Shown: positions 24,466 to 43,784, numbered from the stretch's first letter. The stretch is 64,000 bases of DNA from Lysobacter sp. (GCA_044464395.1 JBIQLI010000001.1:94509-158508), one strand, 5' to 3'. Made by a program: numbers and translations. Notes: generated by a model from the sequence alone, not told the origin.

Positions 24466-24471
24466 GGGCCC

Positions 24472-24503: not shown

Positions 24504-24515
24504 GGCCCGCGGGAC

Positions 24516-25650: not shown

Positions 25651-25674
25651 GCCGCGTCCCGGCGCGATGATCGG

Positions 25675-25704: not shown

Positions 25705-25707
25705 TCC

Positions 25708-27540
<1,833 letters not shown>

Positions 27541-27597
27541 GGGGACGGGGACTCCTGCAGGGGAAACGCCAGTGTAGCGGCTGGCGGCCGCGGCGGC

Positions 27598-27631
27598 TGT
27601 CCGCGCGGACACCCCGGCGTGTCCGCGGACA
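27598..27631 (+). promoter_or_regulatory. Two palindromic sites (putative enhancer/UAS for the sigma54 activator)
   Basis: TGTCCGCGCGGACA (27598-27611) and TGTCCGCGGACA (27620-27631), 45-80 bp upstream of the -24 element. Confidence 0.45.
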
Positions 27632-27675
27632 GCCTGGCCCGGGCGGGAATCCGCGCCGATGCAACGTTCCAGGCT

Positions 27676-27691
27676 TGGCACGCATCCTGCA
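27676..27691 (+). promoter_or_regulatory. Sigma54 (-24/-12) promoter
   Basis: TGGCACGCATCCTGCA compared with consensus TGGCACG-N4-TTGCA. GG is at 27677-78 and GC at 27689-90, with exact 12-nt register. The first ATG downstream is the adaptor gene start at 27731. Confidence 0.8.
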
Positions 27692-27730
27692 TGTACGGGA
27701 GGCAAGCCCCCCGCAGGACACCCCCGCCGC

Positions 27731-29011
27731 ATGAGCATCCGCGACACCTCCGCCCAGGACATCCCGGTCGGCAACGCCGCCGCCCGCCGCGCCCGCCAGC
27801 GCCGGCACTGGCTGCTGTATGCCGGTGGCGGCGCGGCGTTGCTGCTGGTGGGCGCCTGGCTGGTGTCGGGCTGGGCCGCCGGCAGCCGCTCGGTGAGCGG
27901 CGAGCGGGTGCGCATCGCCACCGTCACCCGTGGCGACCTGGTCCGCGACATTTCCGCCGAGGGCCGGGTGATCGCCGCCAACAGCCCCACCCTGTACGCG
28001 GTCGCCGGCGGCACCGTCACCCTGCACGTGGTGGCCGGCGACAAGGTGGAGAAGGGCACCGCGCTGGCCGAGATCGACAGCCCCGAGCTGCGCAGCCGCC
28101 TCGCCCAGGAGCAGGCGACGCTGGCCAGCGTCGAGGCCGAGGCCAGCCGCGCCGCGCTGGATGCCCAGGTCACCCGATCCAGCGCGCGCCAGCTCCTGGA
28201 AGAAGCCGAACTCGCCCGCCAGGCCGCCGCCCGCGACCTGGAGCGCTACCGCCGAGCGTTCGAGGGCGGCGCGGTCGCGCAGATCGACGTGGCCCGCGCC
28301 GAGGACACCCTCAAGGCCGCCGAGATCGCACTGGCCAACGCCCGCGTCGCCAGCGGCCTGCAGGGCAAGGGGGCAGGGCTGGACCTGCGCAACAAGCGCC
28401 TGCAGGCCGATCGCCAGCGCGCGGTCGTGGCCGAACTGCAACGCCAGGTGGACGCGCTCACCCTGCGCGCGCCGTTCGACGGCCAGGTCGGCCAGGTGCA
28501 GGTGCAGCAGCGCGCCAACGTCGCCGAGAACGCGCCGGTGCTGAGCGTGGTCGACCTGTCGCGCTTCGAGGTCGAGATCCGGGTCCCGGAAAGCTTCGCC
28601 CGCGACCTGGCCATCGGGATGCCGGCGCAACTGCGCAGCGGCAGCGGCGAGCCGTTCCCCGCCGAGGTCTCGGCGGTGTCGCCGGAAGTGGTGAACGGCG
28701 AGGTCACCGCGCGCCTGCGCTTCACCGACAGGCAACCGCCCGGCCTGCGCCAGAACCAGCGGTTGTCGGCGCGGATCCTGCTCGACACGCGCAAGGACGT
28801 GCTGATGGTCGACCGCGGCCCGTTCCTGGAACAGGGCGGCGGCCGCAGCGCGTACGTGATGGACGGCGATGTCGCGGTGCGGCGCCCGGTCGAGACCGGC
28901 GCCAGCAGCCTGGGCTACGTCGAGATCGTCTCCGGCGCGCAGGAAGGCGACCGCATCGTGGTGTCCGGCAGCGACCAGTTCGGCGACGCGGAACGCGTCG
29001 TCGTCAACTAA
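27731..29011 (+). CDS. HlyD/MacA-family periplasmic adaptor
   Basis: ATG 27731 ([10 protein letters not shown]…), a TM segment ([19 protein letters not shown]), lipoyl motif [18 protein letters not shown], and a coiled coil. Confidence 0.88.
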
Positions 29012-29021
29012 CCAAAAAGAC

Positions 29022-29044
29022 AGCCGACCACGGGTCGGCTCTAC
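29022..29044. repeat. REP-like element inside the operon (adaptor-ATPase intergenic)
   Basis: AGCCGACCACGGGTCGGCTCTAC. Confidence 0.75.
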
Positions 29045-29056
29045 GGGAGAAGCAAC

Positions 29057-29773
29057 ATGCTCGAGATGCGCCAGGTCAGCAAGGTCTACCGCACCGAACT
29101 CGTCGAAACCCATGCGCTGCGCGCGCTCGACCTGCACGTGCGCGAAGGCGAGTTCGTCGCGGTCACCGGCCCCTCGGGCTCGGGCAAGACCACCTTCCTC
29201 AACATCGCCGGGCTGCTGGAGACCTTCACCGGCGGCGAGTACCTGCTCGACGGCCAGGACGTGCAAGGGCTGTCGGACGATGCGCGCTCGAAGCTGCGCA
29301 ACCAGAAGATCGGCTTCATCTTCCAGAGCTTCAACCTGATCCCGGACCTCAACCTGTTCGACAACTGCGACGTGCCGCTGCGCTACCGCGGCATGGCCGC
29401 GGCCGAGCGCAAGCGCCGGATCGAGGAAGCGCTGGGCCAGGTCGGCCTGGGCTCGCGCATGAAGCACTACCCGGCCGAGCTCTCGGGCGGCCAGCAACAG
29501 CGCGCCGCGATCGCACGCGCCCTGGCCGGCAGCCCGCGCCTGCTGCTCGCCGACGAGCCCACCGGCAACCTCGACTCGCAGATGGCGCGCGGGGTGATGG
29601 AGCTGCTGGAGGACATCAACGCCAAGGGCACCACCATCGTGATGGTCACCCACGACCCGGAGCTGGCCGCGCGCGCCCAGCGCAACGTGCACATCGTCGA
29701 CGGCATGGCCACCGACCTGAGCGTCGAGCCGAGCCTGCGCCGCGTCGCCAGCGAAGCCCTCGCCAACGGCTGA
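29057..29773 (+). CDS. ABC transporter ATP-binding protein (MacB/LolD type)
   Basis: GPSGSGKTT, LSGGQQQR and [12 protein letters not shown]. It is a close paralog of 41941..42669 (the YRTELVETHALR…GEFVAVTGPSGSGKTTFL block is shared). Confidence 0.92.
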   Translation: MLEMRQVSKVYRTELVETHALRALDLHVREGEFVAVTGPSGSGKTTFLNIAGLLETFTGGEYLLDGQDVQGLSDDARSKLRNQKIGFIFQSFNLIPDLNLFDNCDVPLRYRGMAAAERKRRIEEALGQVGLGSRMKHYPAELSGGQQQRAAIARALAGSPRLLLADEPTGNLDSQMARGVMELLEDINAKGTTIVMVTHDPELAARAQRNVHIVDGMATDLSVEPSLRRVASEALANG

Positions 29774-29785
29774 GGAGCCCACGCC

Positions 29786-31102
29786 ATGTTCGCCTACTAC
29801 TTCGACCTGGCCTTGCGCAGCTTCCGCCGCAACAAGGCCCTGACCACGCTGATGGTGCTGGCGATCGCGCTGGGCATCGGCGCCAGCATGACCACGCTCA
29901 CCGTGTTCCACGTGCTGTCCGGCGATCCGCTGCCGGGCAGGAGCGGCCAGCTCTATTACGTGCAGTTGGACGCCGGCTCGATGGACGGCTACCAGCCCGG
30001 CGAGGAGCCGGACACCCAGCTCACCCGCTATGACGCGGAGGAATTGCTGCGGCAGGCGAAGGGCGACCGCCAGGCGCTGATGACCGGTGGCAGCGTCGCG
30101 GTGACCCCGGCCAAGCAGGGCCTGGATCCGTTCTACAGCGACGTGCGCTACACCAGCGCGGATTTCTTCGCGATGTTCGGCACCCCGTTCCTTTACGGAC
30201 AGGGCTGGACCGGCGCGGAGGACGTGCGCCGCGAACGCGTCGTGGTGTTGTCCAGGGCCCTGAACGACAAGCTTTTCGGCGGCGCCGACAGCACTGGCCG
30301 GACCGTGCGCCTGGACCAGTCGGATTTCCGCGTCGTCGGCGTGCTCGACGACTGGCGCCCGACCCCGCGCTTCTACGACCTCAACTCCAACCGCTACGGC
30401 GCCGCCGAGCAGGCGTTCCTGCCGTTCTCCACCTCGCGCGACCTGAAGATGTCGCGCAACGGCAGCATGAACTGCTGGCGCAACGCCAGCCAGAGCGACG
30501 ACCCCGAGGGCGAGACCGGCGTCAACGCGCCCTGCACCTGGCTGCAATACTGGGTGGAACTGGGCACCCCGGCCAAGGCCGACGCCTACCGGCAGTACCT
30601 GCGCAACTACTCCGACCAGCAGCGCGCCGGCGGGCGCTTCGAGCGGCCCACCAACGTGCGCCTGCGTTCGGTGATGGAGTGGCTGGACTTCAACGAAGTG
30701 GTGCCGGGCGACGTGCGCCTGCAGGTATGGCTGGCGTTCGGCTTCCTGGGCGTGTGCCTGCTCAATACGGTCGGCCTGCTGCTGGCGAAGTTCCTGCGCC
30801 GCTCGAGCGAAATCGGCGTGCGTCGCGCGCTGGGCGCCTCGCGCCGGGCGATCTTCGCCCAGTGCCTGGTCGAAGCCGGCACCGTCGGCCTGGCCGGCGG
30901 CCTGCTCGGCCTCGGGCTGGCCCAGCTCGGCCTGTGGGCCGTGCGCCAGCAGCCGGTGAGCTACGCGGACCTGGTCCACCTGGATCCGCTGATGCTCACG
31001 ACCACCTTCGTGCTCGCGATCTTCGCCAGCGTGCTGGCCGGCCTGGTGCCGGCGTGGCAGGCCTGCCAGGTCACCCCCGCCATGCAGCTCAAGTCGCAGT
31101 AA
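29786..31102 (+). CDS. MacB/FtsX-type ABC permease, type A (438 aa)
   Basis: TM1, a periplasmic domain and a 3-TM FtsX domain. It shares the N-terminal block …GDPLPGRSGQLYY with 33647..34963 and 40634..41944. Confidence 0.88.
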   Translation: MFAYYFDLALRSFRRNKALTTLMVLAIALGIGASMTTLTVFHVLSGDPLPGRSGQLYYVQLDAGSMDGYQPGEEPDTQLTRYDAEELLRQAKGDRQALMTGGSVAVTPAKQGLDPFYSDVRYTSADFFAMFGTPFLYGQGWTGAEDVRRERVVVLSRALNDKLFGGADSTGRTVRLDQSDFRVVGVLDDWRPTPRFYDLNSNRYGAAEQAFLPFSTSRDLKMSRNGSMNCWRNASQSDDPEGETGVNAPCTWLQYWVELGTPAKADAYRQYLRNYSDQQRAGGRFERPTNVRLRSVMEWLDFNEVVPGDVRLQVWLAFGFLGVCLLNTVGLLLAKFLRRSSEIGVRRALGASRRAIFAQCLVEAGTVGLAGGLLGLGLAQLGLWAVRQQPVSYADLVHLDPLMLTTTFVLAIFASVLAGLVPAWQACQVTPAMQLKSQ

Positions 31103-31123
31103 CGACTTCCCCGGAGACCCCAC

Positions 31124-32350
31124 ATGGAACTGCGCCCCATCCTTTCCACGCTGCGCCGGCACAAGACCGCGGCCGCGTTGATCGTGCTCGAGATCGCGGT
31201 CAGCTGCGCCATCATCTGCAACGCCCTGTTCCTGATCGGCGGGCGGCTCGAGCGCATGGACCGGCCGACCGGAATGGCCGAGGACGAGATCGTCCGCATC
31301 CAGCTCACCGGCATCGGCCAGGACGAGAACGCCGCCGCCCTCACGGCAACCGACCTGGCCGCGCTGCGCGCGTTGCCAGGGGTCAAGTCGGCCAGCGCCA
31401 CCAACATGGTCCAGTTCGGCGGCAGTTCCTGGAACACAGGCGTCAACCTGAGCCCGGACCAGACCCAGATCAGCCTCAGCGCGGCGATGTACCTGGGCGA
31501 CGAGAAGCTGCCTGAAACCATGGGCCTGACCCTGGTGAAGGGCCGCACCTTCAACCCGGACGAGATGATCGATTTCGAGACGGCCAACGCACCCGGCAGC
31601 GACGTGCAGATCCCGTCCGTGATCGTCACCAGCGCCATGGCCGAAAAGCTGTGGCCCGGCGAGGATCCGCTGGGCAAGGTGATCTACGGCGGCGACGAGA
31701 ACGGCATCAAGGTCGTCGGCGTGGTCGACAAGCTCGCCCGGCCGAACGACATCGGCGGGCCGGACGCCTACTACTACTCGATGATCTACCCGATCAAGGT
31801 CCCCTACACGGTCGGCGGCAACTACCTGATCCGGGTCGATCCGGCGCGCCGCGCCGAGACCCTGAAGGCCGCCGTGGAGGTGCTCGAGCGCAACGGCCCG
31901 AACCGGATCATCCTCGACCAGCAGACGCTCGAGGAAATGCGCGCCGCCAATTACCAGTCCGACAAGGCGATGGCCTGGATGCTGGCGACCGTGTGCGTGC
32001 TGCTGCTCGTGATTACCGCGCTGGGCATCGTCGGGCTGGCCAGCTTCTGGGTCGCGCAGCGGACCAAGCAGATCGGCGTGCGCCGCGCGCTGGGCGCGAC
32101 CCGCGGCCAGATCCTGCGCTACTTCCAGACCGAGAACTTCCTGCTGGCGACGCTCGGCATCGTGATCGGCATGATGCTCGCGTTCGGCCTCAACCAGCTG
32201 ATGATGGAACGCGCCTCGCTGCCGCGCCTGCCGGCGCTGTACCTGCCGATCGGCGCGATCGTGCTATGGCTGCTCGGCCAGCTCTCGGTCCTCGGCCCCG
32301 CCCGCCGCGCCGCCGCCGTCCCCCCCGCCGTCGCCACCCGCAGCGTCTGA
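31124..32350 (+). CDS. MacB/FtsX-type ABC permease, type B (408 aa)
   Basis: Same architecture as type A. The N-terminus resembles 32443..33642 and 39426..40631 (…LRRHK…IVLEIAVSCAI…). Confidence 0.88.
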   Translation: MELRPILSTLRRHKTAAALIVLEIAVSCAIICNALFLIGGRLERMDRPTGMAEDEIVRIQLTGIGQDENAAALTATDLAALRALPGVKSASATNMVQFGGSSWNTGVNLSPDQTQISLSAAMYLGDEKLPETMGLTLVKGRTFNPDEMIDFETANAPGSDVQIPSVIVTSAMAEKLWPGEDPLGKVIYGGDENGIKVVGVVDKLARPNDIGGPDAYYYSMIYPIKVPYTVGGNYLIRVDPARRAETLKAAVEVLERNGPNRIILDQQTLEEMRAANYQSDKAMAWMLATVCVLLLVITALGIVGLASFWVAQRTKQIGVRRALGATRGQILRYFQTENFLLATLGIVIGMMLAFGLNQLMMERASLPRLPALYLPIGAIVLWLLGQLSVLGPARRAAAVPPAVATRSV

Positions 32351-32375
32351 CCAACTCCCGAAGAGAGGCCTTTCC

Positions 32376-32400
32376 CTTCTCCCCGCCCCGCGGGGAGAAG
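32376..32400. terminator. Hairpin between convergent permease genes
   Basis: CTTCTCCCC-GCCCCGC-GGGGAGAAG, followed by a second small hairpin GCCCCGAAGGGGC. Confidence 0.5.
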
Positions 32401-32442
32401 GTGCCCCGAAGGGGCGGATGAGGGGCGCTTCGGGACTTGCCC

Positions 32443-33642
32443 TCAGCCCCCTCCGACCCCCACCGCCACCACCCCCATCGCCCGCCGGATCGGCGCCAGG
32501 ATCGCAACCTGCCCCAACGCCATCATCCCCAGGGCGCCCGCCAGTGCGGGCGCCAACGGCATCGACGGCGTCCCCAGCCACCCGGTGAGCACCACGCTCA
32601 GACCGATCGCGCAGCCAAGGCCGATGGCTGCGCCCAGGCCCGTGACCAGCATGTTCTCCAGGCGGAAATACCACGCGATATCGCGACGCCGCGCCCCCAG
32701 CGCACGCCGGATCGCGATCGTCTTGCGTCGCTTTTCGATCCAGTAGCTCGACAGGCCGCCGACGCCACCCGCGACGACCAGCGCCAGGATCACGCCCACG
32801 CTGGCGAGAAGCCGGACCACGGCCTGGTCGAACGCAAAGTAGTCGGCGCGCAACTGCGCCAGGCGCGTGCCCGACCACGCGAGGCCGTGCGGCGTGGACC
32901 GGGTCACCGAGGCGATGGCTTCCTCTAGCAGGTTCGGCGACGCATCGTTGTCCGCGCGCAGGACCAGATGTGAGGCAAGCGGACCGCCCGGAGGTGCGGG
33001 AATGAACGCCACGAGCCCCGCTTGGCCGGGTTCGGAAATCGAAGGCGGCAGTACGTCCGCCGCGATGCCGACCACGGTGAACGCGCGACCGGAAATCCGG
33101 ACCTGCTGCCCTGGCACCGCCCCCAATCGCGTCGCCAGCCGCTCGGCGAGCACCACCGTATCGGCCTGTTGCAGTGGCCTGACCGAAGGCGCTGCAAAGT
33201 CCGCGGGCGCGAATCCGCGCCCGGCCAGGATGCGCGCGCCGAGCATTTCCATGAAGCCCGGGCTGCCGTTGTAGACGGCGGCGTCTTCGCTGCGCGGCAA
33301 CACGCCATCGACGCTCGATACCCGGAAATTCCCGGGGCGGCCGTCGAAGGGCAGGGCATTCACGTAGCCGGCCGCGTCAACGCCCGGCAAGGCCAGGGCG
33401 GCTTGCATTGCACGTTGGCGATCCGCGTCATCGACCTTGCCCTGCAATGCCTGTACATCGAGTACGAGCAGGCGCGCGTCGTCGATGCCGGACGGTAGTG
33501 CCTGGAGCGCGAATCGGTGGCGCACCAGGTTGATGCCATTGCCGGCAACGGCGCAGGCGATCGCGACCTGCAGCGCCAGCAGGATCACGATCGGCCAATG
33601 CCGTCGCAGCGCACGCAGGATCAGCGGCAGGTCGGTCGGCAT
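32443..33642 (-). CDS. MacB/FtsX-type ABC permease, type B (399 aa)
   Basis: MPTDLPLILRALRRHWPIVILLALQVAIACAV…, with a C-terminal FtsX 3-TM domain. Confidence 0.88.
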   Translation of the reverse strand: MPTDLPLILRALRRHWPIVILLALQVAIACAVAGNGINLVRHRFALQALPSGIDDARLLVLDVQALQGKVDDADRQRAMQAALALPGVDAAGYVNALPFDGRPGNFRVSSVDGVLPRSEDAAVYNGSPGFMEMLGARILAGRGFAPADFAAPSVRPLQQADTVVLAERLATRLGAVPGQQVRISGRAFTVVGIAADVLPPSISEPGQAGLVAFIPAPPGGPLASHLVLRADNDASPNLLEEAIASVTRSTPHGLAWSGTRLAQLRADYFAFDQAVVRLLASVGVILALVVAGGVGGLSSYWIEKRRKTIAIRRALGARRRDIAWYFRLENMLVTGLGAAIGLGCAIGLSVVLTGWLGTPSMPLAPALAGALGMMALGQVAILAPIRRAMGVVAVGVGGG

Positions 33643-33646
33643 GCGC

Positions 33647-34963
33647 TCAGTCCACCTTGACCTGGATGGCAGGCTCCACTGCGCTGGCCCGCCATGCCGG
33701 ATACATGGCCGCGGCCACGGTCGCCACTACCGATACACCCGTCGCCGCCAGGAATACGTGGGTGTCGACACTGGCGAGCTGCAGGAATCCCTTCGGCAAC
33801 CAGCCGGATACGCGGACGCCGCCGAAGGTGATCGCAAGCCCTGCCATGCTGCCCAGCAGTCCCAGCACCACGGCTTCGACCCCGAACTGGCGCAGGATGT
33901 CCTTGCGCGATGCTCCCAGTGCGCGCCGAATCCCGATTTCATGGGTCCGGCGCAGGAACATCGCCAACAGCAGCCCGGTGGCGTTCACCAGGCACAGGAG
34001 GAGGAATCCGCCGGCCAGCAACAATCCCAGGCGCACCCCACCTGGCACGTTGGCCTTGCGGCGAAGGAGTTCCCGGACGTTCTCGACCCGGAGTTCCTGG
34101 TCGGCGGCAAGCCAGCCTTCCGTGCGGCCGCGGGGCACCAGCGCAGCCAGGTCCTGTTCCAATGCCTTGCGGTCGCGGGTGCTGTCGAGCAAGGCCCACG
34201 CCTGCAGCGAGGCGCAGCGCGAGCGCGGCAAGTCCGCCGCGGAAACGTCGGGGGACACGCCGGGAGGGCAACTACGCGCCATGAACAGGTCGGTGCCCAG
34301 CGCACCGACGCTGGCCAGGGGCAGGTACAGGTTGTCCGCGGGCGCGTAGGCGCCCACGCTGAGATCGTAGAAGTGCGGTACTGGATGCCAATCGCCGGCG
34401 ACGCCGATCACGCGGAAGGTCTTGCCGGCCACCTCCAGGGTACGCCCGATCGGATCCGCACCGCCGAACAGCTGCGTGGCCAAAGGTGTGCTGACCACCG
34501 CCAACGGTTGCCCGGAAGCCTCCTCGTCCGCGGTCCAGGCGCGGCCGCGACGGAGCGGCACCTCGAATGCAGGAAAGAACGACGCGTTGGTGAACCGCAC
34601 GAGATCAGCCGTCCGCCGGCTTCCGTCCCCGGCCGCGATCCCGCCGAATCCGTAAGTCAGACCGACCCATTGGGCGCCCCTGCCTGCCTCGCGGAAGCGC
34701 GCAAATGCCGGGAAGGAAACGAAGCCGGGATCGCTGTCCGACCGAACACCAGACGCGGAGATGTGCAGCAACCGCTGGCTGCGATCGGGGATGGGGTCTC
34801 CCGCAAGTGCATGCATCAACGAATAGGCCGTCATGAAAACGCCGACGCCCGCGCCGACGATCAGCGCGGTCAGCGCGACGTACCAGGGATGCTTCCGGCA
34901 ATTGCGCCACGCCAACCCCAGGTAGTACCGGTACAGCGGCAGGCTGGATTGCACGGATGGCAT
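33647..34963 (-). CDS. MacB/FtsX-type ABC permease, type A (438 aa)
   Basis: …ALIVGAGVGVFMTAYSLMHALAGDPIPDRSQRLLHI…, with a C-terminal FtsX domain. The gap to the next permease gene is 4 nt. Confidence 0.88.
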   Translation of the reverse strand: MPSVQSSLPLYRYYLGLAWRNCRKHPWYVALTALIVGAGVGVFMTAYSLMHALAGDPIPDRSQRLLHISASGVRSDSDPGFVSFPAFARFREAGRGAQWVGLTYGFGGIAAGDGSRRTADLVRFTNASFFPAFEVPLRRGRAWTADEEASGQPLAVVSTPLATQLFGGADPIGRTLEVAGKTFRVIGVAGDWHPVPHFYDLSVGAYAPADNLYLPLASVGALGTDLFMARSCPPGVSPDVSAADLPRSRCASLQAWALLDSTRDRKALEQDLAALVPRGRTEGWLAADQELRVENVRELLRRKANVPGGVRLGLLLAGGFLLLCLVNATGLLLAMFLRRTHEIGIRRALGASRKDILRQFGVEAVVLGLLGSMAGLAITFGGVRVSGWLPKGFLQLASVDTHVFLAATGVSVVATVAAAMYPAWRASAVEPAIQVKVD

Positions 34964-34968
34964 CGCGA

Positions 34969-35466
34969 TTACTCCGCGGCGGGAGTCGACCGCATCTCGC
35001 GCGTGCCGAGGAAAACGTCACGGTATGCGACGCTTGCCTTCAGCGAGTTGAAATATCGGTCCAGTTCCTGCTGGGTCGAATCGCAGTACGGGCAGGTACC
35101 GATGCGCGCGGGGGTCACGCGGACGACGCAATAGTCGGCGCCGCAATCACGCCAGCGCGCGAAATCCACGCCTTCGTCGAAGACGCATTCGCCCAGCACC
35201 GCAACCTTGTCGGCCAGGCGGCCCTTGCTGCCAGTCTCGATCGCGAGCGCCGCGCCCGGTGAATAGCCCAGCTCGCTGCTTGCGAATTCGCCGTGTTCGA
35301 ACACGTACACCTGCGGCGTTTGCGGCTCGAGACCACACTCGCGGAACGCGTCGGGATGGATGAAGACTTCGGTGGCCTCGGCAGCGGAGGTCGTGGCGGG
35401 CTGCGGCGGCGGCGAACAGGCGGAAAGCCCGACGATGAGCAGGGCCAGGCAACGGATCGAGTGCAT
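34969..35466 (-). CDS. CPxC-motif lipoprotein of unrecognised family (paralog of 15408..15881)
   Basis: An AGGA-type SD precedes ATG 35466. Lipobox: MHSIRCLALLIVGLSA/C. It shares PQVYVF and …VVRVTPARIGTCPYCDSTQQELDRYFNS blocks with the paralog. The gap to the permease gene is 5 nt. Confidence 0.7.
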   Translation of the reverse strand: MHSIRCLALLIVGLSACSPPPQPATTSAAEATEVFIHPDAFRECGLEPQTPQVYVFEHGEFASSELGYSPGAALAIETGSKGRLADKVAVLGECVFDEGVDFARWRDCGADYCVVRVTPARIGTCPYCDSTQQELDRYFNSLKASVAYRDVFLGTREMRSTPAAE

Positions 35467-35560
35467 TTCCGATTTCCTTTCCATGGAAAGTGGAGGGGCC
35501 GGGACCAAGCGAGGTCGCCTCGGACAGGCCCCGGCGTTCCTTCGGAGGGGCGCGGAGCAA

Positions 35561-35590
35561 AATCTAGTGATAATGGGAGGGAGCGGTCAA
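35561..35590 (-). promoter_or_regulatory. Putative sigma70 promoter for the lipoprotein-permease operon
   Basis: On the minus strand: TTGACC (35590-35585), N18, TAGATT (35566-35561). Confidence 0.35.
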
Positions 35591-35605
35591 CCTGAAAGCG
35601 GTTCC

Positions 35606-36955
<1,350 letters not shown>

Positions 36956-36957
36956 CG

Positions 36958-38283
36958 ATGCGCCTGCGCCAGCGCATCCCGCTGAGCCTCCAATTCGGCG
37001 CGTTGGCGCTGCTCTACCTGCTCGCGGGCGCCACCCTGGCGGTGGTGCTGGCGCGCTGGCTTGCCCCGGTGTACGCAGCGCTGCTCGCGACCGCGTTGCT
37101 CGCCCCGCTGCTGCTGTACCACGCGCGGCAACTGTTCGCGCCGATGAACGCCCTGTTCCGCGCGCTCGCCGGCAGCGTCGCCAGCTTCCGCGACGGCGAC
37201 TTCTCCTTCAACCTCACCTGGGCCGGGCACGACGAACTGGGCGAGCTGGTCGCCAGCCACAACGCGCTGGGCGACGTGCTGCGCGAGCAGCGCCAGGGCC
37301 TGGTGCAGCGCGAACTGCTGCTGGACACCATGGTCCAGAACACGCCGGTGGCGATGGTGCTGGTGGATCCGTCGCGACGCGTGGTGCTGGCCAACCTGTC
37401 CGCGCGCAAGCTGCTCGGCGACGGGCACAAGCTGGAAGGCCTGTCGTTCGACGCAATTCTCGAAGCCACGCCGCCGGCCGTGCAGGAGGCGTTCGAACGC
37501 GGCGGCGACGGCATGTTCACCCTCGGCGAATCCGGCGAGGACGACAACGGCAACGAGGACATCTACCACCTCGCGCGGCGCCACTTCCGCCTCAACGGCC
37601 GCCGCCACGAGCTGGTGCTGCTGCGTCAGCTCACCGCCGAGCTGCGCCGGCAGGAAGTGCAGACCTGGAAGAAGGTGATCCGGGTGATCAGCCACGAACT
37701 GAACAACTCGCTGGCGCCGATCGCCTCGCTGGCCCACTCCGGCGCGGAGCTGCTGCGCCGCGGCCAGACCGAGCGCCTGCCGACCGCGCTGGCCACCATC
37801 GAGGAACGCGCCCGGCACCTGGAAGGCTTCATCCGCGACTACGCGCGCTTCGCCAAGCTGCCCGCGCCGCGGCTGCAGCCGGTGGCCTGGAACCGCTTCA
37901 TCGCCCAGCTGCGCAGCCAGGTGGAGTTCGCCGCGCAGGGCGCCATCGACGACCGCATCGGCCGCTTCGACCCGGCCCAGCTCGAGCAGGCGCTGCTCAA
38001 CCTGCTGAAGAACGCGCACGAAGCCGGCGGCGACCCGGCCGCCGTGGCCCTGCACCTGCGCCGCGCCGGCAACGGCTGGCGGATCGACGTGCTGGACCGC
38101 GGCACCGGCATGAACGAGGCCGTCCTGGCCAACGCGCTGCTGCCGTTCTATTCCACCAAGCGCCATGGCACCGGCCTGGGCCTGGCGCTGGCCCGCGAGA
38201 TCGCCGAGGCGCACGGGGGGCGGATCTCGCTGGTGAACCGGGAGGGTGGGGGGTTGAGTGTTTCGATCTTTTTGCCGGATTGA
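36958..38283 (+). CDS. Sensor histidine kinase (2 TM - HAMP - PAS - HisKA - HATPase)
   Basis: ATG lies 2 nt after the regulator stop. H-box VISHELNNSLAPI, N box LLNLLKNAHEA, G boxes DRGTGM and GTGLGLAL. Confidence 0.9.
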   Translation: MRLRQRIPLSLQFGALALLYLLAGATLAVVLARWLAPVYAALLATALLAPLLLYHARQLFAPMNALFRALAGSVASFRDGDFSFNLTWAGHDELGELVASHNALGDVLREQRQGLVQRELLLDTMVQNTPVAMVLVDPSRRVVLANLSARKLLGDGHKLEGLSFDAILEATPPAVQEAFERGGDGMFTLGESGEDDNGNEDIYHLARRHFRLNGRRHELVLLRQLTAELRRQEVQTWKKVIRVISHELNNSLAPIASLAHSGAELLRRGQTERLPTALATIEERARHLEGFIRDYARFAKLPAPRLQPVAWNRFIAQLRSQVEFAAQGAIDDRIGRFDPAQLEQALLNLLKNAHEAGGDPAAVALHLRRAGNGWRIDVLDRGTGMNEAVLANALLPFYSTKRHGTGLGLALAREIAEAHGGRISLVNREGGGLSVSIFLPD

Positions 38284-38931
38284 TCAGAGAACCGGTTCGA
38301 CCAAGTGTTCCAGCGCCTGCAGCTCGCGCGTCCCCTGATACAGCTGTCCATCCACGATGAATGCCGGGACGCTCTCGATGCCCAGGCGCTTTGCCTCCGC
38401 AATGTCGGCATCGACGGCCGCACGGCTTCCGGTGTCTTCCATGCAGGACGAAAAGGCCGCGACGTCGGGCACGCCGGACGACCGTGCCATGGGGCTGAAG
38501 TCGCCTTCCAACTCCGGCAGGTCGGCGGAAAACAGCTTGGCCTGGAAGGCCTGGCGAACGCCCTGTTGCCCGGCACATTTGGCCGCGATCGCTGCGGCGT
38601 AGGCGGCTGCATGGATTTGCGTCAGGGGGTACTCGTAACGGATCACGGACAGCCGGCCCGGGTGCCGGGCCACCAGCGTCGACAGCTTCTCGTCCAGGTC
38701 CTTGCAAAAGGGACACTGGTAGTCGGAAAAAAGGACGATCCTGGCGCCCGCCCCGTCGGGCCCCATCGCCGGAATCCGGTTGTCGGCAAGCCTTGTCCAT
38801 CCGCTTACGGGCCGTGAGCCTGGAGCCGCGGTTGGCATCAATTCACGGCGTACCGCGACAACGGTCATCACGATTGCGCAGATCACAAGCACGCCAGTGG
38901 TGGCGTTCTGCGCCAAGCGGGAAGCATTCAT
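38284..38931 (-). CDS. Membrane-anchored DsbA-family thiol:disulfide oxidoreductase
   Basis: N-terminal TM segment (GVLVICAIVMTVVAV), active site FSDYQCPFCKD, and C-terminal …GIESVPAFIVDGQLYQG (cis-Pro region). Confidence 0.85.
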   Translation of the reverse strand: MNASRLAQNATTGVLVICAIVMTVVAVRRELMPTAAPGSRPVSGWTRLADNRIPAMGPDGAGARIVLFSDYQCPFCKDLDEKLSTLVARHPGRLSVIRYEYPLTQIHAAAYAAAIAAKCAGQQGVRQAFQAKLFSADLPELEGDFSPMARSSGVPDVAAFSSCMEDTGSRAAVDADIAEAKRLGIESVPAFIVDGQLYQGTRELQALEHLVEPVL

Positions 38932-38947
38932 GGTCTCTCCATCTGGC

Positions 38948-38970
38948 GCATCCCGGCGAGGCCGGGATGC
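38948..38970 (-). terminator. 10-bp-stem hairpin between the peptide genes and the dsbA-like gene (putative attenuator)
   Basis: On the minus strand: GCATCCCGGC-CTC-GCCGGGATGC, 10 nt after the peptide stop. No T-tract follows. Confidence 0.4.
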
Positions 38971-38979
38971 GTTTTGCGA

Positions 38980-39162
38980 TCAGCGTTCCTTGCAACTGCA
39001 CCCAGACGCGCTCGCAGTGCATCCGTGGGTGCAATAGCAGGTGGTGTTCCCACCTTCGCATCGGTTGTAGAGAATCGACTGCCTTGGCGCGGCGTGCGCG
39101 GAAATGAGGCCGCACGCCAGGATCAGGGAAACCGAAACTCCGTTGACGATTTTCCGTGTCAT
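38980..39162 (-). CDS. Small secreted 6-Cys peptide, family 2, copy 2 (precursor 60 aa)
   Basis: GGAGA lies 6 nt upstream of ATG 39162. Sequence: MTRKIVNGVSVSLILACGLISAHA/APRQSILYNRCEGGNTTCYCTHGCTASASGCSCKER. Confidence 0.6.
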   Translation of the reverse strand: MTRKIVNGVSVSLILACGLISAHAAPRQSILYNRCEGGNTTCYCTHGCTASASGCSCKER

Positions 39163-39184
39163 GGGCTGTCTCCGGGTTTCCTGG

Positions 39185-39370
39185 TTACGCACAAGTGCAG
39201 GAGGTTTCATCGGCCGAGCAGCCGCCTTTGCATTCGCACTTGCCCTTGCCATCGGTGCTTTCGCATTTCGCCTTGAGCAGGGAGGCGCCCATGTGGGGGG
39301 TCGCAAAGGCGGCGGTGGCGCCCAGGCAGATGATCGAAATCGCGATCAGGTTCACCATTTTCCTTGGCAT
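39185..39370 (-). CDS. Small secreted 6-Cys peptide, family 2, copy 1 (precursor 61 aa)
   Basis: AAGGAGA lies 6 nt upstream of ATG 39370. Sequence: MPRKMVNLIAISIICLGATAAFA/TPHMGASLLKAKCESTDGKGKCECKGGCSADETSCTCA. Confidence 0.6.
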   Translation of the reverse strand: MPRKMVNLIAISIICLGATAAFATPHMGASLLKAKCESTDGKGKCECKGGCSADETSCTCA

Positions 39371-39425
39371 GCAGGATCTCCTTTCAGGTTGTTGCGGGAC
39401 AATCGTCCGCTTGTCGGCGGACGGG

Positions 39426-40631
39426 CTAACGCCTCTTGACGGCTTGTGCAGGGTCGATCGCGGTCGCCTTGAGTGAAGGCCCCAGGCTTGAGAGCTGCAC
39501 GACAAAAACAATGAGAAGTGCACACATCGCGACGGAAGACGGCGCCAATGCTTGTACTTCCAGGACCTTCATCAGTACGCGATGCAAGGCCAGCGCCGCG
39601 GGTGCGCCGAGAAGGATGGAGATGATCGCGAGCGCGGCGCTTTCGGCCTGGAATCCCAGGATGATCCTGGATTTCGTGGCGCCCAGTGCCCTTCGTATCG
39701 CGATCGAGCGGCGCGACCGCCTGACGCGGAACGTGGCCAGTCCGCCGATCCCGATGGCAGTCACCAGCAGGAGGGATAGCGTGGCTCCAAGCAGCAAGGT
39801 GGACTTTTCGACATCCCGTTTGAAAAACGCAGAGCGGGATTCCGCGAAGGTCCTGGCTTTTGCGCCGCCGGCAAATGCGGAAAGCCGCTCCTCCATCGCC
39901 CGCATGGTCCGTCCCCGAAGTGGCCCCATCGTCCGGAATAGAAGCACTCCGCGGTCAACAGACGGCACTTCGGGCAGCAGCATCGAATAGTGATTGACGC
40001 TTCCGGCGCCTTGGACGGGGTGTGGGCGCAGCAGTCGCTTGACGACCCCGACCACTCGCAGCGATGCGCCGGAGTCGGTGAACACCAGGCGTCCGGTCGC
40101 ATCTGGTGTACCGAACAGTTGTCGAGCCAGGGATTCGGTGAGGATCGTTGCGGCTGGACCCGCTGCGCCCTCCGATCCCTGTTCGACGTACTCGTTGGGA
40201 AGGAAGTCCCGCCCTGCCACGAGCTCCAGGCCCATGGTTCCGATGGCGCCAGGTCCGCCCTCGAATTGGCTGACCGATATGCCGAGGGCCTGGTCATCGG
40301 TACCGGGTCCTGGAAAGATCGAGCCCACCAGATCGGAACCAAATGGCAGGGCGCGAACCCACGCCGCGGAGGCAACCCCGGGGACCGACCTGGCTTGCAG
40401 GATCGCTTCCCCGGAAGTAAAGCCTTGTCGTCCCGTGCCGAAGTCCTCGAGCTCCACGATGCCCACCACGCCCTCCCCGATGCCGCTGGGCTCGCTCATC
40501 AGCGAAAAGCTGCTGGCAACGACGCTCAGCACATTGGCCGCAACCGCGAAGGTCAGCGCGAGTTCCAGGACCAGCATGGCAGTCGTCAATTTGCCGGCGA
40601 GCAGTGCCTGGACGATGGGATGGCGGCGCAT
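39426..40631 (-). CDS. MacB/FtsX-type ABC permease, type B (401 aa)
   Basis: ATG 40631 lies 2 nt after the upstream permease stop. MRRHPIVQALLAGKLTTAMLVLELALTFAVA…, with a C-terminal FtsX domain. Confidence 0.85.
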   Translation of the reverse strand: MRRHPIVQALLAGKLTTAMLVLELALTFAVAANVLSVVASSFSLMSEPSGIGEGVVGIVELEDFGTGRQGFTSGEAILQARSVPGVASAAWVRALPFGSDLVGSIFPGPGTDDQALGISVSQFEGGPGAIGTMGLELVAGRDFLPNEYVEQGSEGAAGPAATILTESLARQLFGTPDATGRLVFTDSGASLRVVGVVKRLLRPHPVQGAGSVNHYSMLLPEVPSVDRGVLLFRTMGPLRGRTMRAMEERLSAFAGGAKARTFAESRSAFFKRDVEKSTLLLGATLSLLLVTAIGIGGLATFRVRRSRRSIAIRRALGATKSRIILGFQAESAALAIISILLGAPAALALHRVLMKVLEVQALAPSSVAMCALLIVFVVQLSSLGPSLKATAIDPAQAVKRR

Positions 40632-40633
40632 GC

Positions 40634-41944
40634 TCAAAGATCCTTCAACCGCACGGCCGGATCGACCCTGCACGAATTCCACGCAGGCACAGACGCCGCG
40701 CTGATCGAGGCAAGTACGGCGAGCACCAGCGTGGATGCGATCGTGACGCCATCCAGCCTCGCGAAGGGGGACAAATCGCCGTCGGCTTGTCGCACCAGCC
40801 AAAGACCCGCACTGGAGGCAGCGGCGGCTAGCAGCGCCGCTCCCGCCCCAATGGCAAGGCCCTCAAGGCAGTGTTCGACGAAGATCTGCTTCCGGCTGGC
40901 GCCCAACGCACGACGCAGCCCGACTTCGGCGCCTCGGGACTCGAACTTCGCCAGCATGAGGCCGCAGGCATTGAGGATGCAGACGGCCAGGAAGACAAAG
41001 GCGAGCATCAGCTTGACCCTGAGGCCGTCCGAAATGACATCCACCTGGGCAAGTCTTTGGCGGACATTCAACAGCGGTGCGTCGTCGGGTATCCGGACGC
41101 TGCGGCCGAGGTGCCGCTGCGCTTCGACGTAGCGTGCGAGAAAGTCGCTGTAGCGGGGCACCTCGCCCGGCGCCAGCTGGACCCAGAACTGGAGCCAGGT
41201 GCATTGGTCGCCGGTCTTCGATCCCGGCCCCCAGCAGGCCATGTTGCCGATGGTTCGCATGTCCAGGTCGAGTGCGGTCGTCAACGGAAGGAAGAACTGG
41301 TCCTCCACGCCGAACATCGCGTTTCCGGAAGAGGCATAGAAAAGCGGGCGCGGTGCCCAATCCGCAGCCACGCCGATCACGGTGAACTGCGTGTCATCGA
41401 GCGCCAGGGTATGCCCGACCACGTCGGTGGACCCGAACAGCCTCACTGAGAGGGCCCTCCCGAGCACGACCACGCGCCTGCGAGAAGCATCGTCCACGCG
41501 CGACCAGCCTGATCCGGACACAAATGGAACGCCAAACATGCTGAAGAATCCGGCGCTCGTGAATCGCCCGCTTGCGTGCACGCGCTTTCTCGCCTTTCCG
41601 TTGTCCAGGACGACAGTCGCCCTCCCCGCGGACATCGCAGCCTGGTGGGTTGCCTCGTCCGCCTGCAGCAGATTGCGGGCATCGATCCAGGTGAAGCCTT
41701 CCGTGGGATCGAGGCCGGTCTCGTTTGCGAATCCGGCGGGCGATGCATCCAGGTGGGGATAGAACAGCTGCTGGCTACGGCCCGGCAATGGATCTCCGGA
41801 GATCCCGTGAAGGATCGCCACCATCGCCATGCTTGCGGCCGTCCCCAGGCCGATGGTCAGAACGGCCAACGCGGTGACCCAGCCATCGCGCCTGAGGGCA
41901 CGCAACGTCATGCCGCCGATATGGAGAGGCAGGCCGCGGCTCAT
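40634..41944 (-). CDS. MacB/FtsX-type ABC permease, type A (436 aa)
   Basis: …ILHGISGDPLPGRSQQLFYPHLD…. ATGA overlap with the ATPase gene. Confidence 0.88.
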   Translation of the reverse strand: MSRGLPLHIGGMTLRALRRDGWVTALAVLTIGLGTAASMAMVAILHGISGDPLPGRSQQLFYPHLDASPAGFANETGLDPTEGFTWIDARNLLQADEATHQAAMSAGRATVVLDNGKARKRVHASGRFTSAGFFSMFGVPFVSGSGWSRVDDASRRRVVVLGRALSVRLFGSTDVVGHTLALDDTQFTVIGVAADWAPRPLFYASSGNAMFGVEDQFFLPLTTALDLDMRTIGNMACWGPGSKTGDQCTWLQFWVQLAPGEVPRYSDFLARYVEAQRHLGRSVRIPDDAPLLNVRQRLAQVDVISDGLRVKLMLAFVFLAVCILNACGLMLAKFESRGAEVGLRRALGASRKQIFVEHCLEGLAIGAGAALLAAAASSAGLWLVRQADGDLSPFARLDGVTIASTLVLAVLASISAASVPAWNSCRVDPAVRLKDL

Positions 41945-42669
41945 GTCAGGGGCAGCGCGTCACCATGCATCATCGCGGGATCGGATTCGCTGACGACGCA
42001 TCCGTCGAGCAACCGCACCCGCCGCCCCGCCCGCGCCGCCAACACCGGATCGTGCGTCACCATCACGATCGTCGTGCCGCGTTCGTTGAGCCGTTCCAGC
42101 AACTCCAGGATTTCCTGCGCCATGGCCGAGTCCAGGTTGCCGGTCGGCTCGTCGGCCAGCAGCAGGCTCGGCTCGGTCACGATCGCCCGTGCGATCGCGG
42201 CACGCTGCTGCTGGCCACCCGAGAGCTGGGACGGGAAATGCTCCATCCGCGTGCCCAGCCCCACCATGTGAAGTGCCGCATCCGTGCGGCGCCTGCGCTC
42301 GGCCGCCGGCATGCCGCCATAGCGCAGCGGCAGTTCGACGTTGTTGCGCAGATCCAGCTCCGGGATCAGGTTGAACGACTGGAAGACGAAGCCGATGCTG
42401 CGCGCGCGCAACTCGCTGCGCTGCCGGTCCGAGAGCGCCTCCACCGGCTGTCCGTCCAGCAGGTAGCTGCCGGCGCTGGCGGTCTCCAGCAGTCCGGCAA
42501 TGCTCAGGAAGGTGGTCTTGCCCGAACCCGAGGGCCCGGTCACGGCGACGAACTCGCCCGGCTTCACCACAAGGTCGAACCCGCGCAGCGCATGGGTTTC
42601 GACCAGGTCGGTGCGGTAGGCCATCGAGATGCCACGCATCTCGAGGATCGGCGTCGCTTCCTTGCGCAT
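41941..42669 (-). CDS. ABC transporter ATP-binding protein (MacB/LolD type)
   Basis: GGAGGA lies 3 nt upstream of ATG 42669. GPSGSGKTT, LSGGQQQR and [12 protein letters not shown]. Confidence 0.9.
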   Translation of the reverse strand: MRKEATPILEMRGISMAYRTDLVETHALRGFDLVVKPGEFVAVTGPSGSGKTTFLSIAGLLETASAGSYLLDGQPVEALSDRQRSELRARSIGFVFQSFNLIPELDLRNNVELPLRYGGMPAAERRRRTDAALHMVGLGTRMEHFPSQLSGGQQQRAAIARAIVTEPSLLLADEPTGNLDSAMAQEILELLERLNERGTTIVMVTHDPVLAARAGRRVRLLDGCVVSESDPAMMHGDALPLT

Positions 42670-42890
42670 GCGTCCTCCGCGGGATGCGTCCATGCATCCG
42701 GTGGGCAGACATTAACCCGCCGCGAAGCCCGCGCAAAGACTTTGAACAGGGGTCACGCCCACCTGCATGAACGGTTCGTCGCGCAACGCGCGAATTTAGT
42801 TTCGGCCTCACGGGAATTCGACCCGCGCTCGCTCAAAGTCGTAGCTGCCGGCACATCCCCCCACGCCGGTTTCCAAGAGGAGAGAACGCG

Positions 42891-43103
42891 ATGACCAACC
42901 AGAACCGTCACCAAGGCGGCGGCAATCGCCAGGAAGGCAACAACCGCCAGGACAGCGGCAATCGCCAGCAGCAGGCCAGCGGCCGCCAGGAAGGCATGGG
43001 TCGCGAAGGCAAGGGTAGCCAGCAGGCTTCCGGCCGCCAGGGCGGCGACCAGGAAAACCAGGGCCGCCAGGGCAACCAGAGCAGCAATACCCGCAATCGC
43101 TGA
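42891..43103 (+). CDS. Small Gln/Gly/Arg/Asn-rich hydrophilic protein (stress-hydrophilin-like, unassigned)
   Basis: Strong SD (AAGAGGAGAG) and a rho-independent terminator directly downstream. 70 aa with no hydrophobic core: MTNQNRHQGGGNRQEGNNRQDSGNRQQQASGRQEG…. Confidence 0.6.
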   Translation: MTNQNRHQGGGNRQEGNNRQDSGNRQQQASGRQEGMGREGKGSQQASGRQGGDQENQGRQGNQSSNTRNR

Positions 43104-43114
43104 CCTCGATGGCG

Positions 43115-43152
43115 AACGACCGGAGGGCGCTGCCCTCCGGTCGTTTTCTTTT
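43115..43152 (+). terminator. Rho-independent terminator
   Basis: AACGACCGGAGGG-CGCTG-CCCTCCGGTCGTT followed by TTCTTTT. Confidence 0.8.
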
Positions 43153-43181
43153 GCCTGGCGGGCATTGCCCGCCGACCGCAA

Positions 43182-43703
43182 CTACTGCACGAACTTGTTC
43201 GAAACCATGCTGGCACCGGTCTTGTTCGCGGCCTCGGCCAGCACCGCCATCGCCTCCGGCGAGCGCTTCCATTCCTCGTACTGCACGTCCATGTCCGCGC
43301 GTTCCTCGGCGCTGAACAGCTCGCGCGCCATCTTGAACATGGTCTTCTCTTCTTCCTTGGCGTGGTGGTCGATGAACTCGCCGAACACCTTGCTGCGGCC
43401 GGCGAACTCCGGCGTGGTGACCTCGGCGCCGTGCACGTCCGGCATCACCGTCTGCTCCACCGCGCGGTGTTCTTCCACCGCCTCGGCGTAGGTCTGCAGG
43501 CCTTCGCGGTCGGCGCGCTGCTTGAACGCCGGGTAGAACACTTCCTCTTCCCACTTGGCGTGCGGCAGCAGGTTCTCGTCGATCTTCTTCAGCAGTTCCG
43601 TGCGCGTCTTGCTGGCGCGGTCGGTCGTGGACTTCATCTCCTTGAAGAGGTCACGCAGCATGTCGTGTTCCTGCTTCAGGGTCTTGAGGATGTCGCGCGG
43701 CAT
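43182..43703 (-). CDS. Hemerythrin HHE cation-binding domain protein
   Basis: AAGGAAG SD precedes ATG 43703. His/Glu ligand pattern (…QEHDML…, LPHAKWEEEVFYP, EEHRAVE, IDHHAKEEE). Confidence 0.75.
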   Translation of the reverse strand: MPRDILKTLKQEHDMLRDLFKEMKSTTDRASKTRTELLKKIDENLLPHAKWEEEVFYPAFKQRADREGLQTYAEAVEEHRAVEQTVMPDVHGAEVTTPEFAGRSKVFGEFIDHHAKEEEKTMFKMARELFSAEERADMDVQYEEWKRSPEAMAVLAEAANKTGASMVSNKFVQ

Positions 43704-43784
43704 CGTGGGCTTCCTTGTGTGGTGGGGGAAGCCCACAGACTCGGCCGCGAACCGTCGAAAAGCCGTGAACCGGCGTGCGTGCGT

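Follow-up and report, generated by a model that had tools for sequence, protein, structure and literature searches.

Why does a bacterium carry three pairs of MacB-type permeases, two ATPases and one adaptor within 15 kb of DNA, grouped about a sigma-54 two-component system, and do these parts make up one machine? The question is raised by a stretch of the genome of Lysobacter sp. (GCA_044464395.1, JBIQLI010000001.1:94509-158508), 64 kb in length and approximately 70% G+C (hereafter the window), in which the cluster occupies positions 27598-42669. Exact protein matches assign the window to a Luteimonas-like assembly of the Lysobacteraceae, GCA_044462545.1. A preliminary description of this DNA had presented the three permease sets as a unit wrapped around the regulator. 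We propose instead that the region probably consists of a core sigma-54 operon (set 1) and two independent accessory cassettes (sets 2 and 3), and that it belongs to an uncharacterised branch of the MacB family in which the permeases would assemble as A-B heterodimers. The density of pumps in this region reflects insertions into one locus, and not one integrated machine or a designed circuit.

A core operon and probable accessory cassettes

Genes were identified by listing open reading frames (ORFs) and by scanning the window proteins against Pfam and NCBIfam, and every gene of the preliminary description was recovered in its place, including all three A-plus-B permease pairs within 15 kb. Set 1, on the plus strand, begins with a periplasmic adaptor of the HlyD/RND_mfp type (27731-29011; 426 amino acids; Pfam HlyD_3 and HlyD_D23), which has a single N-terminal transmembrane segment and scores 146.6 bits against the NCBIfam RND_mfp model (cut-off, 94.9). 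The adaptor gene is followed by those for an ABC ATPase, ATP1 (29057-29773; 238 amino acids; Pfam ABC_tran), the A-type permease A1 (29786-31102; 438 amino acids) and the B-type permease B1 (31124-32350; 408 amino acids), each permease having four transmembrane segments. Beyond an interval that contains set 2, the same strand encodes the NtrC-type activator and the kinase that had been reported at 35606-38283. The former is a response regulator of 449 amino acids (35606-36955; Pfam Response_reg, Sigma54_activat and HTH_8, a Fis-type helix-turn-helix), and the latter a histidine kinase of 441 amino acids (36958-38283; Pfam PAS_8, HisKA and HATPase_c).

To which of the three sets does this two-component system belong? 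Our comparative sample consisted of 80 loci, from the best 80 of at least 559 GTDB genome-scan matches, all of them set 1 orthologues, and from homologue contigs. It is drawn from Luteimonas, Lysobacter, Pseudoxanthomonas, Thermomonas and their relatives, its loci were annotated by BLAST against the window proteins, and its coverage of distant A-B pairs is not broad. Among the 60 Lysobacteraceae loci with enough sequence, 58 share one arrangement, in which glmS is followed by adaptor-ATPase-A-B-NtrC-kinase, and in the other two the contig ends within the locus. Thus, the two-component system belongs to set 1, and the picture of three sets wrapped around a common regulator is not supported. Set 1 also differs from the other sets in G+C content at third codon positions, for which set 1 has 0.95, compared with 0.82-0.83 for set 2 and 0.70-0.87 for set 3. 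We take set 1 (27598-32350 together with 35606-38283) to be an ancestral operon that was probably inherited vertically in the Lysobacteraceae. Its products would most likely form an (ATPase)2-A-B complex, which the adaptor would link to an outer-membrane channel whose gene lies elsewhere, and would most likely expel a compound from the periplasm or the outer leaflet by MacB-style mechanotransmission.

Set 2 lies between B1 and the NtrC gene and is absent from a sister strain, L004. By blastn, L004 positions 1-12628 correspond to window positions 19783-32430 and L004 positions 12646-21317 to window positions 35604-44304, at 98.1-98.5% identity, and in place of the 3173 base pairs at 32431-35603 the sister strain has 17. 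Set 2 is therefore a discrete indel between the hairpin that follows B1 and the start codon of the NtrC gene. It is encoded on the minus strand, and comprises a predicted lipoprotein, LP2 (34969-35466; 165 amino acids), which is the first gene of the cassette, followed by A2 (33647-34963; 438 amino acids) and B2 (32443-33642; 399 amino acids). A2 is rare, the closest relatives beyond the source genome having 46-54% identity to it. In LP2, for which neither Pfam nor NCBIfam gave a family, an LSAC lipobox is accompanied by a conserved, glutaredoxin-like CPYC (CxxC) motif that reads CLYC or CPPC in homologues. A homologue with 48-49% identity lies upstream of the A2 and B2 homologues in locus L093, and in L094 the position of LP2 is taken by a distant CPPC lipoprotein (21% identity). 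Published accounts describe type VII transporters as often acting on or through periplasmic partners such as EnvC, LolA, TesA and YbjP, and by analogy it is a reasonable guess that LP2 is a partner or client of A2B2. We regard set 2 as a cassette of CxxC lipoprotein, A2 and B2 whose insertion is probably strain-specific.

Set 3 is likewise encoded on the minus strand and begins with a second ABC ATPase, ATP3 (41941-42693; Pfam ABC_tran), which has 250 amino acids in its longest ORF and 242 in the gene call of the sister strain. The start of A3 (40634-41944; 436 amino acids) overlaps the ATP3 stop by 4 nucleotides, and B3 (39426-40631; 401 amino acids), for which we used the start codon of the gene calls in L001 and L004, follows A3. 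Downstream are two paralogous genes for small precursors, Pep1 (39185-39370; 61 amino acids) and Pep2 (38980-39162; 60 amino acids), the second of which is a gene in public annotations. Each consists of a Sec signal and a mature peptide of approximately 35 residues, in which six cysteines are invariant among eight family members in the pattern C-x6/8-C-x-C-x3-C-x6-C-x-C; neither precursor matched a Pfam or NCBIfam family. The last gene of the cassette encodes a DsbA-like thioredoxin-fold protein of 215 amino acids with an N-terminal transmembrane segment or signal anchor (38284-38931; Pfam Thioredoxin_4 and DSBA). Upstream of set 3, on the opposite strand, an ORF at 42892-43104 would encode approximately 70 very hydrophilic residues rich in Q, G, N and R (MTNQNRHQGGGNRQEGNN...); it is followed by a strong terminator-like hairpin at 43114-43146, and in L004 an ORF of 65 amino acids is called at the equivalent position.

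The order ATPase-A-B-peptide-peptide-DsbA is kept in L004, L017 and L089-L092, at 31-81% identity. In L004, L017, L091 and L092 the peptides are always paired downstream of ATPase-A-B and the DsbA-like gene ends the cassette, and we regard set 3 as a conserved accessory cassette. In L017 it occupies the same location as in the window but is much diverged (31-62% identity), and it is missing from most genomes. The slot between the kinase and hemerythrin genes, in which set 3 is found, is empty in L011. In the Lysobacteraceae metagenome-assembled genome (MAG) L019, the slot (15533-19206) holds a gene with MerR-type helix-turn-helix and N6-DNA-methylase domains and two ORFs without assignment. 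The contents of the slot in L011 and L019 mark the kinase-hemerythrin junction as a site for variable islands.

The nearest precedent for the peptide cassette comes from E. coli, where Sec exports the enterotoxin STII, DsbA oxidises it and MacAB-TolC then expels it (PMC5985334). By analogy with STII, the set 3 peptides would pass through Sec to the periplasm, be oxidised there and then be handled by A3B3. Such handling may consist of export with a borrowed adaptor, or it may protect the producer from its own peptides.

Possible sharing of the ATPase and adaptor

If, on the model of LolCDE, each heterodimer is served by two identical ATPase subunits, then one ATPase gene per A-B pair is to be expected. 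An ATPase is missing from set 2 alone, and an adaptor from both sets 2 and 3. Having neither component, set 2 must borrow an ATPase, for which ATP1 is the best candidate. ATP1 and ATP3 are close paralogues, as had been noted, with 69% identity between them and 48-50% identity to the further two type VII ATPases of the window. Both have intact Walker A, signature, Walker B and H-loop motifs, and their best NCBIfam matches are to type VII-style ATPases (DarD, LolD, FtsE, YbbA and the MacB nucleotide-binding domain). The reported tally of two ATPases and one adaptor is correct inside 27.6-42.7 kb only; the window contains two more complete MacB-type systems, at 15730-20234 and 50267-53459, each with its own adaptor and ATPase, and so encodes four type VII ATPases in total.

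Related loci offer examples of what sharing might look like. In eight of the 80 loci, from Pseudoxanthomonas or Luteimonas, one adaptor gene and one ATPase gene precede two to four A-B pairs in tandem, with the NtrC and kinase genes downstream; these are L067 (four pairs, 5906-17930), L010, L017, L025, L056, L064, L068 and L085. In L093, a Luteimonas MAG, the adaptor and ATPase genes are followed by opposite-strand homologues of LP2, A2 and B2 (49-54% identity) and then by NtrC and kinase, and the locus has no A1 or B1. Orphan A-B pairs without an adjacent ATPase occur in L088 and L094/L095. The pair in L088 (Frateuria sp. Soil773; 4998-10528) has neither an ATPase nor an adaptor nearby, and immediately follows two genes, one BlaI-like (Penicillinase_R) and one BlaR-like (Peptidase_M56), which points to another regulatory logic. 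The multi-pair operons and the arrangement in L093 support the suggestion, made in the preliminary description, that components are shared across sets, and from this comparison we regard sharing of the ATPase and adaptor among A-B pairs as plausible.

This reasoning can be carried further. The ATPase dimer and the adaptor could form a chassis for interchangeable, client-specific A-B pairs, present in one to four copies per operon or as mobile orphan cassettes, while the kinase reads transporter activity. Candidate clients would be the CxxC lipoprotein and the pair of DsbA-oxidised six-cysteine peptides, and the part given to the kinase would amount to flux sensing of the Bce type, but in a Gram-negative organism and by way of an enhancer-binding protein. 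We put forward such a modular platform only tentatively, as a possibility with a low chance of being right.

In a second alternative, each of the three sets functions on its own, with an unlinked ATPase for set 2, an adaptor-free set 3 that serves as an inner-membrane immunity or extraction device, and a locus that is a hot spot for insertion. The variable slot at the kinase-hemerythrin junction would suit this account, as would the homologues of cassette 2 at an unrelated locus (L094/L095), the orphan A-B pairs beside BlaI/BlaR-like regulators in Frateuria (L088) and the presence of four type VII ATPases in the window. It is unlikely, however, given that in L093 a pair of the cassette-2 type provides the sole permeases of a locus that retains the core adaptor and ATPase, that one ATPase and adaptor normally serve several A-B pairs in the arrays found within operons, and that cassette 2 immediately precedes the NtrC gene, at the same place and in the same orientation, in both the window and L093.

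The permease pairs and their relatives

All six permeases score above the Pfam gathering thresholds for both MacB_PCD and FtsX, and each has four hydropathy peaks for transmembrane segments, with a loop of approximately 240-280 residues between the first and the second. As had been reported, a GDP(L/I)P(G/D)RS motif follows the first segment in all three A members (SGDPLPGRS in A1 and A3; AGDPIPDRS in A2), and in an alignment of 112 A-type sequences P48 is invariant while P50 and S53 are at least 90% conserved. The A and B members are indeed distinct types. Identity extends over the full length within each type (30-42% among the A-types, 28-31% among the B-types), whereas A and B share only short local matches, mainly in the C-terminal FtsX region.

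The relationship between the two types becomes clear from the NCBIfam family ADOP, which is the top-scoring family for all six proteins (118-196 bits). Of its 803 positions, the A-types match approximately 7-401 (A1, 7-401; A2, 7-398; A3, 8-401) and the B-types approximately 410-801 (B1, 410-801; B2, 418-794; B3, 412-801). Searched against 1.84 billion representative proteins, a profile built from A1-A3 matched 5995 at E<1e-30, and ten of the best 150 matches are fusions of 831-871 amino acids with the A profile on the N-terminal half. In all ten, the N-terminal half is A-like (34-43% identical to A1 over the full length) and the C-terminal half B-like (28-36% identical to B1); the fusions have approximately eight transmembrane segments (4+4), with no linker helices. 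One comes from a Steroidobacteraceae genome, and fused forms therefore occur in Gammaproteobacteria too. In a neighbour-joining tree, the A-types with the N-terminal halves and the B-types with the C-terminal halves form separate clades, each with 100/100 bootstrap support, and the two lineages branch broadly in parallel.

The arrangement of separate A and B genes matches that of the fusions. Among related loci, the B gene directly follows the A gene in 84 of the 85 cases with enough downstream sequence, an order that corresponds to the N-to-C domain order of the fusions, and in the window the two genes are separated by 2-21 nucleotides. This fusion and fission, or 'Rosetta stone', pattern is classic evidence for joint action of A and B in a pseudo-symmetric heterodimer. 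The fusions, the A-then-B adjacency and the two clades thus favour the heterodimeric machines first proposed, and the view that the membrane part of the transporter is an A-B heterodimer, equivalent to the two halves of an ADOP-type fused permease, is well supported by sequence comparison.

Could A and B each form homodimers instead, so that each pair represents two pumps that use one ATPase? Homodimers are the commonest arrangement among characterised members of the MacB family (PMC5985334), and two Pseudoxanthomonas loci carry a lone extra B-type gene. Such an arrangement is nevertheless distinctly improbable in view of the natural single-chain fusions, in which the order is always A then B, the succession of B directly after A in all but one case, the 100/100 clades with their broadly parallel branching, and the tight packing of the genes, with gaps of 2-21 nucleotides between A and B or a 4-nucleotide overlap with the upstream ATPase gene.

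In sequence and fold, the permeases are ADOP/MacB-like. An AlphaFold 2 model of A1 (predicted local distance difference test score, pLDDT, 86.7) has MacB (5gko_A; E=1.4e-18) as its top PDB neighbour, and in the same fold search MacB chains matched at E=1e-18 to 1e-16 and LolE and LolC at approximately 1e-11. A model of a natural A-B fusion (pLDDT 79) is best matched by YbbP, over both halves and approximately 946 alignment columns. The description 'LolC/LolE-like' therefore fits as an analogy for the pairing of two permeases alone; as a class we rejected it, both NCBIfam scores and the fold search placing the proteins nearer to MacB and ADOP.

Features general to the MacB or type VII superfamily are all present, namely four transmembrane segments, a large periplasmic domain between the first and second, a C-terminal FtsX domain and an ATPase of the MacB/LolD/FtsE type. 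Set 1 resembles MacAB-TolC, the tripartite pump of E. coli, A. baumannii and A. actinomycetemcomitans, further in its HlyD-type adaptor, and it alone has the adaptor of a tripartite pump, there being no adaptor gene in sets 2 and 3. MacB is the closest solved structure to these permeases by both sequence and fold, but it is a homodimer with a fused N-terminal ATPase, whereas here the ATPase is separate and there are two permeases, and identity in structural alignments is 14-21%. The six proteins score at most 44 bits against the NCBIfam models for MacB, LolC/E and FtsX; for the MacB equivalog NF007826, in which the ATPase is not a separate gene as it is here, the values are 19-44 bits against a cut-off of 966.

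The ADOP family (TIGR03434) was defined on Acidobacteria, and differs in that its two halves are here separate genes; the 118-196 bits obtained fall below its cut-off of 622, also when summed per pair. The relation to ADOP is thus one of homology to its two halves and not one of family membership. ADOP members frequently have no adjacent ATPase gene, from which the term 'orphan' derives, and set 2 is similar in this respect, whereas an ATPase gene adjoins the permeases of sets 1 and 3, with an adaptor gene in set 1 as well.

To our knowledge, among well-studied type VII systems LolCDE alone has two different permeases and a separate ATPase. It has the stoichiometry D2-C-E and no adaptor. The present systems would resemble it in this respect if A and B assemble as the genes and fusions predict. 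They differ in the adaptor of set 1 and in their weak sequence similarity (18-23 bits against the lolCE and LolC models, with cut-offs of 362 and 473), and their fold matches to LolCDE fall short of the MacB matches by approximately six orders of magnitude.

E. coli YbbAP (PDB 9ge6 and 9ge7) provides the best structural match to a natural A-B fusion, by way of YbbP. The latter has two extra linking transmembrane helices (PMC5985334), which the fusions, with their approximately eight segments, lack. YbbAP is reported to work with TesA, a periplasmic or lipid-anchored partner (PMC12646458), and this may be compared with the possible lipoprotein partner in set 2. In literature searches on duplicated orphan permeases and on sigma-54 together with MacB or FtsX, we came upon no experimental work on the present system. 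PltIJKNO was considered as a known two-permease pump of MacB type and dropped, since PltN is given in its paper as CcdA/LysE-like and not FtsX-like.

Predicted control of the core operon and implications

What controls these genes? A sigma-54-type -24/-12 promoter (TGGCACGCATCCTGCA, 27676-27691, plus strand) lies approximately 40 nucleotides upstream of the adaptor ATG. Its score of 20/21 is the highest in the window, in which just three sites on both strands reach at least 19; the plain sigma-54 consensus was uninformative over the whole window, with 73 matches against 86 expected. Of 78 orthologous loci, 75 have the sequence TGGCAC-N5-xTGC ahead of the adaptor gene, mostly by 13-111 nucleotides, with a variable spacer and both elements constant. 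Two inverted repeats, TGTCCGCGCGGACA (27598-27611) and TGTCCGCGGACA (27620-27631), begin 78 and 56 nucleotides before the -24 element, are the sole perfect copies in the 64 kb and are candidate upstream activating sequences for the activator. A dyad TGTCCG-N(0-4)-CGGACA is present near -78 and/or -57 in 61 of 75 orthologous loci, and 25 loci have at least two sites. The adjacent NtrC-type protein has a Sigma54_activat domain (E=1.9e-64), and the promoter, upstream dyads and AAA+ activator of an enhancer-dependent layout are all present at set 1. From this layout, we infer that the NtrC-type protein is the obvious activator of the set 1 promoter, and that its own two-component system probably turns the operon on.

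Control of the other two sets by the activator is not supported. No sigma-54 site of at least 15/21 in the relevant orientation and no dyad was detected upstream of set 2 (35467-35605, minus strand) or set 3 (42694-42891, minus strand), and neither was found in front of the peptide and DsbA genes; the promoter and dyads occur upstream of set 1 alone. A sigma-70 promoter scan of 38.2-43.2 kb gave zero matches.

A 2025 computational survey in PLoS One independently found COG0577 (FtsX-type) permeases in gamma-Proteobacteria to be enriched for predicted sigma-54 promoters (PMC12316311). The survey is consistent with the promoter described here, but it is a COG-level statistic that does not deal with A/B pairing, this operon, its dyads or its kinase.

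The preliminary description had also suggested that the kinase may sense the exported peptides. By hydropathy, the kinase has two transmembrane segments (residues approximately 7-25 and 26-44) joined by a loop of approximately 2-4 residues (...LAVVLARWLAPVYAALL...), and thus no periplasmic domain. They are followed by a HAMP-like region, recognised by eye and without a domain match, and by the PAS, HisKA and HATPase domains. Two transmembrane helices with a very short outer loop are the topology of an intramembrane-sensing kinase. Direct sensing of periplasmic peptides is therefore unlikely, and the kinase is retained in genomes without the peptides. With no periplasmic sensor, its signal should arise within the membrane, at the PAS domain in the cytoplasm or from the transporter, the last (a Bce-like arrangement) being speculation. 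BceAB-BceRS of Firmicutes similarly links a type VII transporter to a two-helix kinase that has no extracellular sensor domain. BceB is a fused permease with ten transmembrane helices and one extracellular domain. The present system differs from BceAB-BceRS in its NtrC-type sigma-54 activator and in a kinase with HAMP and PAS regions, and the evidence for a coupling between transporter and kinase is solely their conserved co-location.

In light of these results, a single combinatorial supercluster in which the central sigma-54 system controls every set and senses the exported peptides by autoinduction is highly improbable: although all units lie within 15 kb, the ATPases are 69% identical paralogues and the peptide cassette is directly downstream of the kinase in three Luteimonas genomes (the window, L004 and L017), the regulator pair accompanies set 1 in 58 of 60 loci, nearly all of them without sets 2 and 3 or the peptides, set 2 is missing from a strain with 98% identical DNA, the slot of set 3 is elsewhere vacant or occupied by unrelated genes, neither set 2 nor set 3 is preceded by a sigma-54 promoter or dyad, and the kinase lacks a periplasmic domain that could bind a peptide.

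Several other features of the window lie outside the cluster. The system at 15730-20234 (plus strand) comprises an adaptor, an ATPase and a fused, duplicated permease of 791 amino acids (two copies of MacB_PCD + FtsX; ADOP, 134 bits). This permease (17859-20234) was considered as a fusion of the A and B lineages, and was rejected as such because it forms a separate branch with weak similarity to either. The system at 50267-53459 (plus strand) is MacAB-like, with an adaptor, a separate ATPase (approximately 51544-52143) and a single MacB-like permease (199.5 bits against the MacB model), and is preceded by a Yip1-domain gene (49567-50304). An Rfam scan of the whole window detected a cobalamin riboswitch alone (RF00174; 94.6 bits; 49281-49506, minus strand), outside the cluster region and at or just upstream of the 5' end of a TonB-dependent receptor ORF (47267-49441, minus strand). 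A copper or heavy-metal cluster at 21896-25133 (minus strand) encodes a DUF411 protein and a P-type ATPase that contains an HMBD domain; in L004 a MerR-type gene is annotated between the two.

The interpretation that we favour, a core sigma-54 operon with two accessory cassettes and A-B heterodimers, has several points against it. The lone B-type genes in Pseudoxanthomonas L032 (5792-7018) and L033 (12681-13904), which are 28-30% identical to B1, lie between B and NtrC and have no A partner, so that A-B pairing is not absolute. The alignment of the fusion model with YbbP is of moderate quality (TM-score 0.42-0.49; root-mean-square deviation 12-13 Å). L093 is a MAG, and A1 and B1 could lie elsewhere in that genome. 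No gene for a TolC-type outer-membrane channel is present among the annotated ORFs of 24-47 kb. Set 3 is without an adaptor in every instance seen, which weakens export relative to immunity or another periplasmic role; for export across the outer membrane, the cassette would need to borrow an adaptor, for example that at 27731. The scans for sigma-54 sites and dyads used simple consensus sequences, from which weak or atypical sites before sets 2 and 3 may escape. Finally, a GC-rich hairpin (CCTTCTCCCCGCCCCGCGGGGAGAAGG, 32375-32401, plus strand) downstream of B1 is a possible terminator or attenuator and is kept in L004, there with a T-run before the NtrC ATG. With this hairpin between B1 and NtrC, the regulator genes may be transcribed separately, and an autoregulatory loop is therefore only a possibility.

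What is known of MacB-type transporters rests on homodimers (MacB and FtsX), one heterodimer (LolCDE) and fused forms (YbbP and BceB). The locus described here and its relatives constitute a large uncharacterised branch, with 5995 representative proteins at E<1e-30. Its hallmarks are an apparently obligate A-B heterodimer, sometimes fused, several pairs per ATPase and adaptor, and a sigma-54 activator with a sensor-less kinase. If sharing is true, one energising module would serve several substrate-specific membrane modules, and this would explain why ADOP-type permeases are so frequently 'orphans'. Furthermore, MacB-type handling of disulfide peptides has so far been approached mainly with E. 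coli STII, and set 3 offers a genetic system in which the handling of a folded, disulfide-bonded periplasmic peptide by a MacB-type transporter can be studied in an environmental bacterium.

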